Positions 12,001-15,000 of a stretch of DNA of 21,332 nucleotides are shown piece by piece. A program made the position numbers. This DNA comes from a virus (Duplodnaviria; Heunggongvirae; Uroviricota; Caudoviricetes): positions 1 through 21,332 of the IMG/VR virus record IMGVR_UViG_2563366990_000019; one strand, given 5' to 3'. How positions within the stretch are numbered: position 1 is the first letter of the stretch; every line of letters starts with the position of its first letter.

Positions 12001-15000
12001 TGTTGCAGCTCAGGAACGCTTCTACCGGAATGGCAGCACGAAACGCATTCAGAAAGCGCAGCCAGCAGTCAGTGACGCAGAGAAGGAAATGTTCATCAAC
12101 AATCTCCGCGCCGTCTGTCATAACTTCCGGCGCATCAACGAAATCTGGCGGGCGCAGTTAATGCCTGCTCTCGAAAAAATGGATTCGAAACTGGTTTACC
12201 AGTTGCATGACCGCTTCAGCGACAGCATGTGCATTCTGCCGACCATAGAAGACCGCATCGGCAGATATATCCCACCCACTTTACCTCGTTAATCCTTCAG
12301 TTCGCCCCTGCTCAGCCAGGGGCTTTTTATCACCGTTTAATTTACGGAGGACTTCGTTTTGTCTGAAAACACTGATTTAAAAAAGCAAAGTATCAGACCT
12401 GTAATATCATTTGGCCTGATACTTACTTGCATCTATTTTCAATAATTGGGAATTATACTTCTTTATAACGCCTCGTCCCGGAAAAAGAAACCAAAACATA
12501 AAAGCCATCCATATACACAGCAACATTAAAACAGCGCCCATTCCTATAAAAACAGCGCCATAATTTAACGACCAACAGAAAAATATCAAGCCATCAGCCA
12601 AATAAAAGATAGAAACAACTTTAGAACACCAGCGACATCGTTTGTATTTACCTTTGTAGCGTATAAAGAATCTATCGTATTTACACTGAATATGGGGTGC
12701 TAAATAACCCCACTGCCAAAACGGCATTTTCAATTCAGAATACGTTCTGACATAAATAACTAACGTTCTTAATTTCTGGCTACTTATACCTAATATACTT
12801 TTTTTAACTTCTCTTTTGATTTCTGCCTTCATAAACTCTACATCAGAAGGCTCAATATGCTCCGGATAATTCTTCAGAATATGCGAGAATTTTGTTGTTT
12901 TCGGTAAAAACCAACTAGCATCTTTAAATAACTTATAAACACCGACTGGTGCAGTTATGGCTGAAATTATGACTCCAACAAGTGAGATAATATCTTTCGT
13001 ATCCATGTAGCTAATTCTTCGGAGTAAATACAATGTCCAATATACTATGGGGCGACCTGGAAACCTATTGTGACATTCCGATCAACAACGGTACCCATGC
13101 GTATGCCGAAGGCGTTGAAGTGATGCTTTTCGCATGGGCTATCAACGACGGGCCAGTAAACGTGTGGGATATCACTGCCGGTGGTGGTATTCCACACGGC
13201 TTATACGAAGCAATCGCAGCCCCTGAAACCCTGCTTTATTTCCATAACTCTCACTTCGACCGCACCGTTCTGCGTTATGCAATGCCGCGACTGGCACCGC
13301 CAGTCGAACGTTGGCGCGACACGATGGTTCAGGCGCTGGCGCACGGTCTCCCGGGGTCTCTGGGGGAACTCTGCGAAGTACTAGGCGTCCCGCAAGACAA
13401 AGCGAAGGACAAAGAAGGTAAAGCGCTGATCCAGCTGTTCTGTAAGCCACGCCCGAAAAACAGCAAACTGCGTCGGGCCACCAGTAAAACCCACCCGGAA
13501 GAATGGCGGCGCTTTGTTGCTTACGCCGGACTGGATATCGAGGCAATGCGCGAAGTCTATAAACGTCTGCCGAAGTGGAATTATCAGGGGACAGAGCTGG
13601 CGCTCTGGCATCGTGATCAGCAGATCAACGACCGGGGCGTCTGCATGGACATGCAACTCGCGCGCGCTGCGATCGAAGCGGTAGACCAAGAGCAAAAGCG
13701 CTTGGCAAAGCGTACACAGGAAATGACTGATGGCGAAGTGCAGGCAGCCACACAACGGGACGCGTTGATTAAGCACATCGTTGAATCCTACGGTGTGGAG
13801 CTACCAGACATGCAACGCAGTACCCTGGAACGTCGTATAGCCGACCCCGATTTACCATCTGCCGTGAAAGAACTGCTGGCTATCCGCCTGCAGGCCAGTA
13901 CTACCAGCACCAGTAAATACAAGGCACTGATGAAAGGCGTAAGCCACGACGGGCGCTTACGCGGTACGCTACAGTTCTGCGGAGCGTCACGTACCGGTCG
14001 TTGGGCCGGACGGCTATTCCAGCCCCAGAACCTTCCCCGTCCTTCACTAAAACAGGAACAAATAGACGAAGGCATCGAAGCACTGAAAGCCGGATGTGCA
14101 GACCTGCTGTTTGACAATATCATGGAACTAACCAGTTCAGCGTTACGTGGCTGCATTATCGCGCCAACAGGCAAAAAACTGGTGGTAAGTGACTTGTCAA
14201 ACATTGAAGGCCGTATGCTGGCATGGCTGGCGGGAGAAGAATGGAAACTGAATGCATTCAGAGAGTACGACGCCGGAACGGGTCCGGACTTATATAAACT
14301 GGCGTATGCAAAAGCTTTCGATATTACACCAGATGATGTTGATAAACACATGCGTCAGATCGGTAAAGTCATGGAACTCGGTCTGGGTTATGGAGGTGGT
14401 GTATCGGCTTTCATCACTTTTGCTCTGGTTTACGGTCTCGATCTCGACGAGCTGGCGAACGCCGCACTGCCAAACATTCCCCGCGATGTTATCCGCGAGG
14501 CGAAAAGCTGGTACAACGAATCGGTTAAACGTAAGTCGACCTTTGGCCTGTCCGAGCGTGTATTCATCGCATGTGACTCGCTCAAGCGCCTGTGGCGCAG
14601 GGCGCACCCGGCGACCTGCGATTTCTGGTACGAACTGGAGCGCACCGTCCGCACTGCAATCGCCACACCGCAAAAAACATTGTATTGCGGTTATCTTAAA
14701 ATCCGCCGCGATGGCGCGTGGCTGCGCATACAGCTACCATCCGGACGCGCTGTATGCTACCCCTCTCCGGTTATCGAAAAAGGGAATATCACCTATATGG
14801 GTGTTAACTCTTATTCGCGTAAATGGCAACGACTCAAAACCTACGGCGGAAAGCTGGTAGAGAACGTCACCCAGGCGGCCGCCCGCGACGTTCTGGCCGG
14901 AAACATGCCGCTTATCGAAGATGCCGGTTACAGCATTGTGCTGACGGTACACGACGAGGTGATCACCGAAGCACCTGACACAGAAGATTTCAACGATAAA

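Follow-up and report, generated by a model that had tools for sequence, protein, structure and literature searches.

The window analysed here, 21,332 nucleotides of viral DNA (Caudoviricetes; IMG/VR record IMGVR_UViG_2563366990_000019), is the early/replication half of an Escherichia coli prophage integrated beside yfhL, and carries on its minus strand, between a Bro-N antirepressor gene and the gene for a family-A DNA polymerase (polA), a gene for a predicted inner-membrane protein of 199 amino acids (aa). What is new here is that the protein belongs to an uncharacterised but definable family, that its gene occupies a conserved, cassette-like antisense slot within a widespread replication module, and that its predicted architecture resembles that of the exclusion protein SieA of phage P22. 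A function in exclusion or abortive infection is probable, with the placement, composition and turnover of the gene resembling those of known prophage-borne conflict genes.

An independently terminated, AT-rich gene on the minus strand

An earlier note on this DNA had described a minus-strand gene of 199 aa, AT-rich and with a hairpin/U-tract terminator of its own, sitting as a moron within the replication operon. The gene is confirmed as an intact open reading frame (ORF), with RefSeq annotating the same 600-nt coding sequence (CDS) in a 99%-identical copy. The gene and its junction with polA comprise the following elements.

12407–13006, minus strand: CDS of the 199-aa inner-membrane protein, with its ATG at 13006 and its TGA stop codon at 12407–12409
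12379–12428, minus strand: probable intrinsic terminator of the membrane-protein gene, a 16-bp interrupted hairpin (12428–12383) followed by U6 ending at 12379
13007–13032: head-to-head spacer from the ATG of the gene to the ATG of polA, 26 bp, including the polA ribosome-binding site GGAG
13039–13044, minus strand: candidate -10 hexamer TATATT, antisense to polA codons 3–4 (AAT ATA), ~33 nt upstream of the ATG of the gene

The GC content of the gene is 0.345 (0.33 at third codon positions), against 0.48 for the flanking Enc34-type single-stranded DNA-binding gene (ssb), 0.51 for Bro-N and 0.54 for polA, with just 0.6% of 600-nt windows across the 21 kb being equally AT-rich; windowed comparison (34.5% versus 48–54% GC) thus upholds the contrast with the flanks that had been claimed. 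The claimed terminator is likewise supported by RNA folding, by shuffling and by the preservation of its stem in a second allele. The 13-nt hairpin loop holds the TGA stop codon of the gene, and it is because of this long loop that a simple terminator scanner missed the hairpin. The fold has a predicted energy of -19 kcal/mol (z = -3.8), with none of 200 shuffles equally stable. In the 80%-identical allele of locus L002 the stem is preserved through paired substitutions on both arms, and locus L011 likewise has strong hairpins spanning the stop codon.

Comparison of the window gene with the L002 allele gives a ratio of nonsynonymous to synonymous divergence (omega) of 0.33, and the protein is therefore under purifying selection. 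A chance ORF in AT-rich DNA is ruled out by this value below 1, by the conservation of the gene as an intact ORF, for which the earlier note had suggested looking, and by the confident structure model described below.

A cassette-like slot beside polA

Family members only 17–25% identical to the window protein are found in the same antisense slot, between an Enc34-type ssb and polA, lying head-to-head with polA and with 20–26 bp between the two start codons, a spacing that recurs in loci L002, L011, L016, L070 and L073. The slot is occupied in prophages of Escherichia, Klebsiella and Serratia, and also by three members, P0019, P0024 and P0039, known only from unattributed contigs of sequencing runs. 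All cargo of the slot is AT-rich wherever it was examined, the GC content of the gene itself being 0.28–0.36 compared with 0.42–0.59 for its neighbours.

Among 5,426 complete E. coli genomes, 159 contain the first 600 nt of this polA, at 95% identity or more in 151. The slot holds a window-type gene in 20 of the 159 (at 99.8–100% identity in seven and at ~80% in 13), a 209-aa paralogue of the same topology, 18–23% identical, in 67, and an unrelated soluble protein of 229 aa, in the same position and orientation, in 27; the slot content was characterised in all but ~45 of the 159. In the region L006 2115–3439, the gene for the 229-aa protein is itself AT-rich, matches no family, and overlaps the end of a plus-strand nucleotide-modification gene of the Nmad5 family. 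With the window region 11400–14000 as the query, a 99.1%-identical copy is found in strain JNEC-KY176 (locus L001), and in prophages with differing cargo homology begins at the polA ATG or 9 bp upstream of it (query position 1634 or 1625). Two related loci with a different form of polA (944 and 657 aa) have no minus-strand gene at the junction. Between the window and L002, the membrane-protein gene has diverged to a dS of 0.53 and a dN of 0.17 (synonymous and nonsynonymous divergence), compared with a dS of 0.10–0.13 and a dN of 0.007–0.008 for the flanking polA and ssb.

The slot thus behaves as a cassette with allele replacement in E. coli, and the presence, absence or replacement of the gene at the same junction in related prophages, proposed earlier as a check, is what is seen. 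The description of the gene as a moron holds insofar as it is independently terminated, compositionally foreign and on the opposite strand, and it understates the case, the gene having long held a fixed place next to polA. Further members of the family are found in unrelated lambdoid prophages, where they lie antisense within the early region. A distant relative of 161 aa (21% identity, E = 2e-6) lies on the Pantoea ananatis plasmid NZ_CP020945 (L008 4205–6480), divergent beside a gene for a 516-aa protein with a P-loop NTPase fold and near an integrase fragment; unlike the prophage copies, this pair may represent a two-gene arrangement.

Spacer and candidate promoter

As the 26-bp spacer also contains the polA ribosome-binding site, the promoter of the slot gene must lie inside the polA CDS. 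The hexamer TATATT at 13039–13044 is a candidate -10 element, unproven as such. It overlaps the rare isoleucine codon ATA (polA codon 4, 13042–13044), which is kept in six diverged polA genes, with the antisense strand of this region reading TATATT, TATAGT or TATGTT. An equally good explanation for the conserved ATA codon is the AT-rich codon bias that is usual at the starts of genes. Synonymous conservation over polA codons 1–20 is mildly raised (0.61 versus 0.50 overall) and not clearly in excess, no acceptable -35 element accompanies the candidate hexamer, and the counts of promoter-like and terminator-like elements in the gene region, as determined by consensus scan, are at chance level.

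Topology, structural model and conserved motif of the protein

Hydropathy and an AlphaFold model place three transmembrane (TM) segments at residues ~5–27 (TM1), ~128–147 (TM2) and ~152–175 (TM3). The model, built on an alignment of 32 sequences, has a pLDDT (predicted local distance difference test score) of 87.9 and a pTM (predicted template-modelling score) of 0.68; confidence was reached only with this alignment, an earlier model from 13 close sequences being unusable (pLDDT 57). By the positive-inside rule, the basic helical domain of ~100 aa between TM1 and TM2 (21 Lys/Arg) and the C-terminal tail (6 Lys/Arg) are both cytoplasmic, with periplasmic exposure limited to the four-residue TM2–TM3 loop and ~4–6 N-terminal residues. 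The topology proposed earlier, an N-terminal TM segment followed by a basic soluble domain and a C-terminal hydrophobic hairpin, is consistent with both hydropathy and the model, with the exception of the size of the domain, given as about 115 aa and found here to be ~100 aa.

The C-terminal basic tail bears the motif FPGRGVIKKYNSQLLKID, which across the family takes the form (F/Y)P-x7-(Y/I/L)N-x-x-L-x-K-I-D directly after TM3. Only Pro176 and Asn185, both within this motif, are nearly invariant in the family, and the protein is therefore probably not an enzyme.

The protein family

Twelve clusters of full-length homologues, each of exactly 199 aa and 51–98% identical, together with one 110-aa fragment, were found in Escherichia, Enterobacter, Klebsiella aerogenes and Citrobacter. 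When 1.84 billion protein representatives were searched exhaustively with a profile, the family expanded to just 33 representatives; ~25 of these are 190–260 aa long and are matched along most of the sequence, and the others are fragments of 51–158 aa. All carry the database name "hypothetical protein". At least 1,000 E. coli contigs encode the exact window protein, relatives of Shiga-toxin prophages included. A tblastn search with it against 50,697 phage records gave no match; among isolated phages, only three induced E. coli prophages have the paralogue.

The protein had been thought assignable to no family, which holds for the curated libraries: scans of the window protein and its 32 aligned relatives against Pfam, NCBIfam and PADLOC returned nothing consistent. 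The copy of Pfam scanned was without PF26849 (SieA), and SieA itself goes unmatched in it. There is, however, a nearly full-length match to PHROG_10579, a cluster annotated "unknown function" that is matched by 30 of the 32 aligned members, by the 209-aa slot paralogue at E = 7e-107, and by the window protein at E = 7e-4 (residues 38–192 against profile positions 21–179 of 182). The 199-aa group of the window is a distant branch, ~20% identical to the PHROG core, and PHROG_10579 is itself a mere sequence cluster without function, structure or literature. Profile search of PDB sequences gave no E value lower than 0.37, no match was found among viral structures, and literature searches on the protein accession, PHROG identifier and phage name returned nothing. 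The SLATT and two-TM (2TM) effectors (RTasSLATT and 2TM Effector in PADLOC, DUF4231 in Pfam) were each matched by one or two members (E = 0.0015–0.05), over the soluble or N-terminal region and not colinearly with the TM hairpin, and were rejected.

Function and alternative explanations

The gene is antisense to an operon that the prophage repressor should silence, has its own terminator and a foreign composition, is dispensable, and is swapped between alleles at a fixed site, and it is for these reasons that a function in exclusion or abortive infection is favoured. The conflict genes that prophages express, sieA, sieB and rexAB among them, show such a pattern. More specifically, there is an even chance that the protein is expressed from the prophage and protects the lysogen at the inner membrane, likely through a SieA-like block of genome entry at the cytoplasmic membrane. 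The underlying observation is sound, and its interpretation in terms of defence, which draws on context and analogy, is reasonable and unproven. We infer the expression of the gene in lysogeny, the position of its promoter, and any anti-phage activity and mechanism of the protein.

In the proposed mechanism, the CI/LexA-type repressor would silence the plus-strand early operon in the lysogen, so that transcription of the minus-strand gene could start at a promoter within the opening codons of polA and run to the gene's own hairpin/U-tract. The protein would insert into the membrane in an N-out/C-in orientation, with the 100-aa domain and the tail bearing the conserved motif facing the cytoplasm. 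Upon induction, early transcription would run antisense through the gene and should shut it off, and the differing alleles of the slot would represent differing exclusion specificities.

Several points weigh against a prophage-expressed exclusion protein. The consensus scan finds no sigma-70 promoter upstream of the gene, and for two members of the family the surroundings are ordinary chromosome. Known defence families are matched by none of the members, with the PADLOC matches being weak and confined to single members. The near absence of periplasmic surface is unusual for some injection blockers, and the link to SieA is statistically weak (probability 6–16%), with the spacing of the motif off by two residues and the Glu-Ala pair of the SieA motif absent. 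Finally, the tight and deeply conserved pairing with polA could indicate a role in the replication of the phage itself.

This last possibility, in which the protein would be an accessory to the life cycle of the phage, for example as a membrane anchor or organiser of the PolA-type replication machinery, or by influencing either the lysis-lysogeny decision or the physiology of the host upon induction, draws on the eight diverged lineages that hold the gene head-to-head with polA (20–26 bp), between ssb and polA, and on the 87 of 159 E. coli prophages with this polA (~55%) that have a family member in the slot. It is nevertheless quite improbable, as the gene opposes the whole replication operon, so that lytic transcription is antisense to it; it is dispensable, being replaced by an unrelated soluble protein in 27 genomes and by no minus-strand gene in the two related loci; members also occur in prophages without polA, at chromosomal sites and on a plasmid; and its sequence turns over far faster than those of the replication genes. 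The tight junction also bears on an explanation in which the transcription unit and not the protein is the main function, with convergent antisense transcription from the start of polA acting as an insulator that, in the lysogen, stops leaky early transcripts short of polA. Start codons just 26 bp apart, a gene that runs antisense along its whole length to the transcript needed for polA, and the identical position and orientation of the unrelated 229-aa cargo are all consistent with such an insulator. It is very improbable, given that the protein is under purifying selection and models with high confidence, that length, topology and motif are conserved across the 33 representatives, and that members are also found away from polA.

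Among explanations in which the protein acts for the lysogen, an abortive-infection effector is the main rival to a SieA-like block, and is unlikely, although less so than the two preceding alternatives. The cytoplasmic domain would sense a phage product or process, upon which the TM hairpin would oligomerise and depolarise or permeabilise the membrane, with the infected cell dying before any progeny form, in the style of RexB, SieB and the 2TM effectors. Nearly all of the soluble mass is cytoplasmic and periplasmic exposure is minimal, membrane effectors typically have a C-terminal two-TM hairpin and a basic amphipathic tail, the antisense early-region placement is that of sieB, and cassette-like diversification argues for a role in an arms race. 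Set against this are the lack of similarity to lambda or P22 SieB, SLATT/2TM matches that are weak, limited to single members and out of register with the TM hairpin, and the lack of a partner sensor gene conserved beside the slot gene. A lysogenic-conversion factor outside phage defence, such as an envelope or stress-tolerance protein or one that interferes with Tol/Ton-dependent colicin uptake, is distinctly improbable. The AT-rich, independently terminated, antisense placement suggests expression from the prophage as for many conversion genes, the exact protein is widespread on E. coli contigs, and its topology is TolQ/ExbB-like, with TolQ, ExbB and ZorA making up most of the insignificant top matches in structure searches. 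These matches are, however, very poor, as detailed below, and the exchange of alleles at one fixed slot is expected more of genes in conflict between phages than of genes for host fitness.

The prophage and its other genes

The features of the window surrounding the gene are listed below.

2993–3069, minus strand: tRNA-Arg (anticodon tct)
6821–7501, plus strand: LexA/CI-type repressor gene
9280–10581, plus strand: DUF2800 PD-(D/E)XK nuclease gene
10597–11145, plus strand: Enc34-type ssDNA-binding gene (ssb)
11292–11365, plus strand: isrK RNA (Rfam)
11391–11477, plus strand: C4 antisense RNA (Rfam), which with isrK lies directly upstream of the Bro-N/antirepressor gene
11492–12292, plus strand: Bro-N antirepressor gene
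12304–12323, plus strand: terminator at the end of the isrK/C4-RNA/Bro-N cassette, a GC-rich 7-bp stem followed by T5
13033–15096, plus strand: family-A DNA polymerase gene (polA)
16415–16744, minus strand: gene for a 109-aa Arc-like repressor, with PHROG matches down to E = 7e-16
17872–19266, plus strand: SNF2 helicase gene
19460–20863, minus strand: integrase gene, at the end of the block

Contrary to the earlier description, the neighbouring genes between 7918 and 19463 are not all plus-stranded, the Arc-like gene being on the minus strand; it lies inside an AT-rich patch (16200–17600) and adjoins a Rha/antirepressor-like gene (17079–17609).

The isrK/C4-RNA/Bro-N unit (11292–12323) looks like a c4-ant immunity cassette of the P1/P7 style, inserted between ssb and the membrane-protein gene. 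The cassette is missing in L002, where the membrane-protein gene directly abuts ssb. Its terminator at 12304–12323 marks the left boundary of the slot in the window prophage, and would stop early transcription ahead of polA unless antiterminated.

Four related prophages carry TIR-domain genes (CAP12-PCTIR_TIR) immediately 3' of polA, with none in the window:

L003 7137–7898: TIR-domain gene 3' of polA
L007 5129–5872: TIR-domain gene 3' of polA
L011 5093–5854: TIR-domain gene 3' of polA
L017 1831–2589: TIR-domain gene 3' of polA

The position downstream of polA is a second variable, defence-like slot of the same replication module.

The window prophage is an stx-negative relative of a Shiga toxin 2b (Stx2b) prophage (window 2432–3069; L001 3310–4545). 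The JNEC-KY176 copy carries stxA2b and stxB2b between tRNA-Arg and a DUF6645 gene, this ~1.3 kb being absent from the window, and a match to an STnc100-like small RNA lies at 2655–2860 on the minus strand, where the window is without stx genes.

Comparison with known membrane and exclusion proteins

The proteins MotA, TolQ and ExbB, as well as ZorA of the Zorya system, share a gross topology with the slot protein, consisting of an N-out TM1, a cytoplasmic helical domain, TM2–TM3 and a cytoplasmic tail within ~200–240 aa. The Foldseek ranking, in which TolQ, ExbB and ZorA made up most of the insignificant top matches (E of at least 0.7, template-modelling scores of at most 0.28), along with a look-alike IP...YN motif, raised the possibility of homology to these proteins, which was rejected. 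Alignment by hhalign to a profile of ten TolQ/ExbB sequences gave a probability of 1.6% over a short, non-colinear match, with no similarity over the TM2–TM3 channel region (PF01618), and none of the loci examined contains a partner gene of the TolR/ExbD/ZorB kind.

Both exclusion proteins cited as precedents in the earlier note, SieB and SieA, are indeed encoded by antisense, AT-rich prophage genes. SieB of lambda and P22, like the slot protein, is a membrane protein of ~190 aa from an AT-rich gene antisense in the early operon of a temperate phage, and it is expressed from the prophage. The family members that lie antisense in other lambdoid early regions mirror this placement of sieB. The TM segments of SieB are N-terminal, and homology was rejected, with an hhalign probability of 0.2% for both lambda and P22 SieB. 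Unlike SieB, no Esc-like internal product is evident for the slot gene. The sole sites in the region that resemble promoters fall within the gene, at 12560–12589 on the minus strand, upstream of the part encoding TM3 (TTGATA, 16–18 nt, TAAATT/AATTAT); with two found compared with 2.7 expected, their number is at chance level, making an Esc-like internal product pure speculation.

Of the characterised proteins, the nearest analogue on present comparison is P22 SieA, which acts at the inner membrane to stop P22-like phages from injecting their DNA and leaves adsorption unaffected. SieA has three TM segments (type A) or four (types B and C), arranged as a TM segment, a cytoplasmic segment and a TM-TM hairpin, with a conserved cytoplasmic motif, FxRYPxEAxxFNK, near the C-terminus, and its types are ~25% identical and held at one genomic position (PMC10883804). 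SieA and the 199-aa protein, as predicted, have in common a small inner-membrane protein with TM1, a cytoplasmic segment and TM2–TM3, a cytoplasmic motif of the form aromatic-Pro...aromatic-Asn-x-x-hydrophobic-x-Lys directly after the last TM segment, and a strongly AT-rich unit of one gene that runs counter to the genes around it (GC of 0.337 versus 0.471 for P22 sieA, and 0.363 versus 0.475 for HS1 sieA). Like SieA, the slot family consists of very divergent types that keep one genomic position.

The two differ in the motif, FP-x7-YN in the slot family and YP-x5-FN in SieA, the spacing being two residues longer in the former and the Arg, Glu and Ala of SieA absent, and in the cytoplasmic domain, which is ~100 aa in the 199-aa protein and ~50 aa in SieA. 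Their positions also differ, with sieA lying between homologues of gene 16 (ejection protein) and gene 9 (tailspike) of P22-like prophages, and the 199-aa gene lying between ssb or Bro-N and polA in the Enc34-type replication module. Alignment of the family to SieA type A by hhalign gave a score of 24.2 (P = 0.0058, probability 6%), rising to 28.4 (P = 0.0016, probability 16%) with types A and B combined, type B being that of E. coli HS; the alignment spans only TM2 to the C-terminus. In controls, reversed profiles scored 12–13 and local column shuffles 14.9 +/- 2.7, with one shuffle in 60 as high as the true alignment. To enrich the SieA profile, viral contigs were scanned, which recovered only near-identical sequences of types A and B, and none of type C. 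The likeness of the profiles is suggestive and falls short of establishing homology.

Should phage exclusion by the protein prove real, the result would be a further, so far uncharacterised defence family of single genes, as well as a defence hotspot inside the widespread PolA-type prophage replication module. Genes of this kind shape which phages, Stx phages and therapeutic phages included, can infect a lysogen. Furthermore, the link to SieA, if demonstrated, would mean that a mechanism so far confined to P22-like phages operates in a far wider set of prophages. A broader proposal, which we regard as doubtful, is that the PHROG_10579 proteins and P22 SieA descend from a single ancient superfamily whose members block genome entry at the inner membrane in prophages of the Enterobacterales, held in this module as interchangeable specificity alleles in a fixed antisense "exclusion slot", with a promoter in the first polA codons and with lytic transcription switching exclusion off. 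Were this so, the slot beside polA would constitute a built-in self-immunity toggle.

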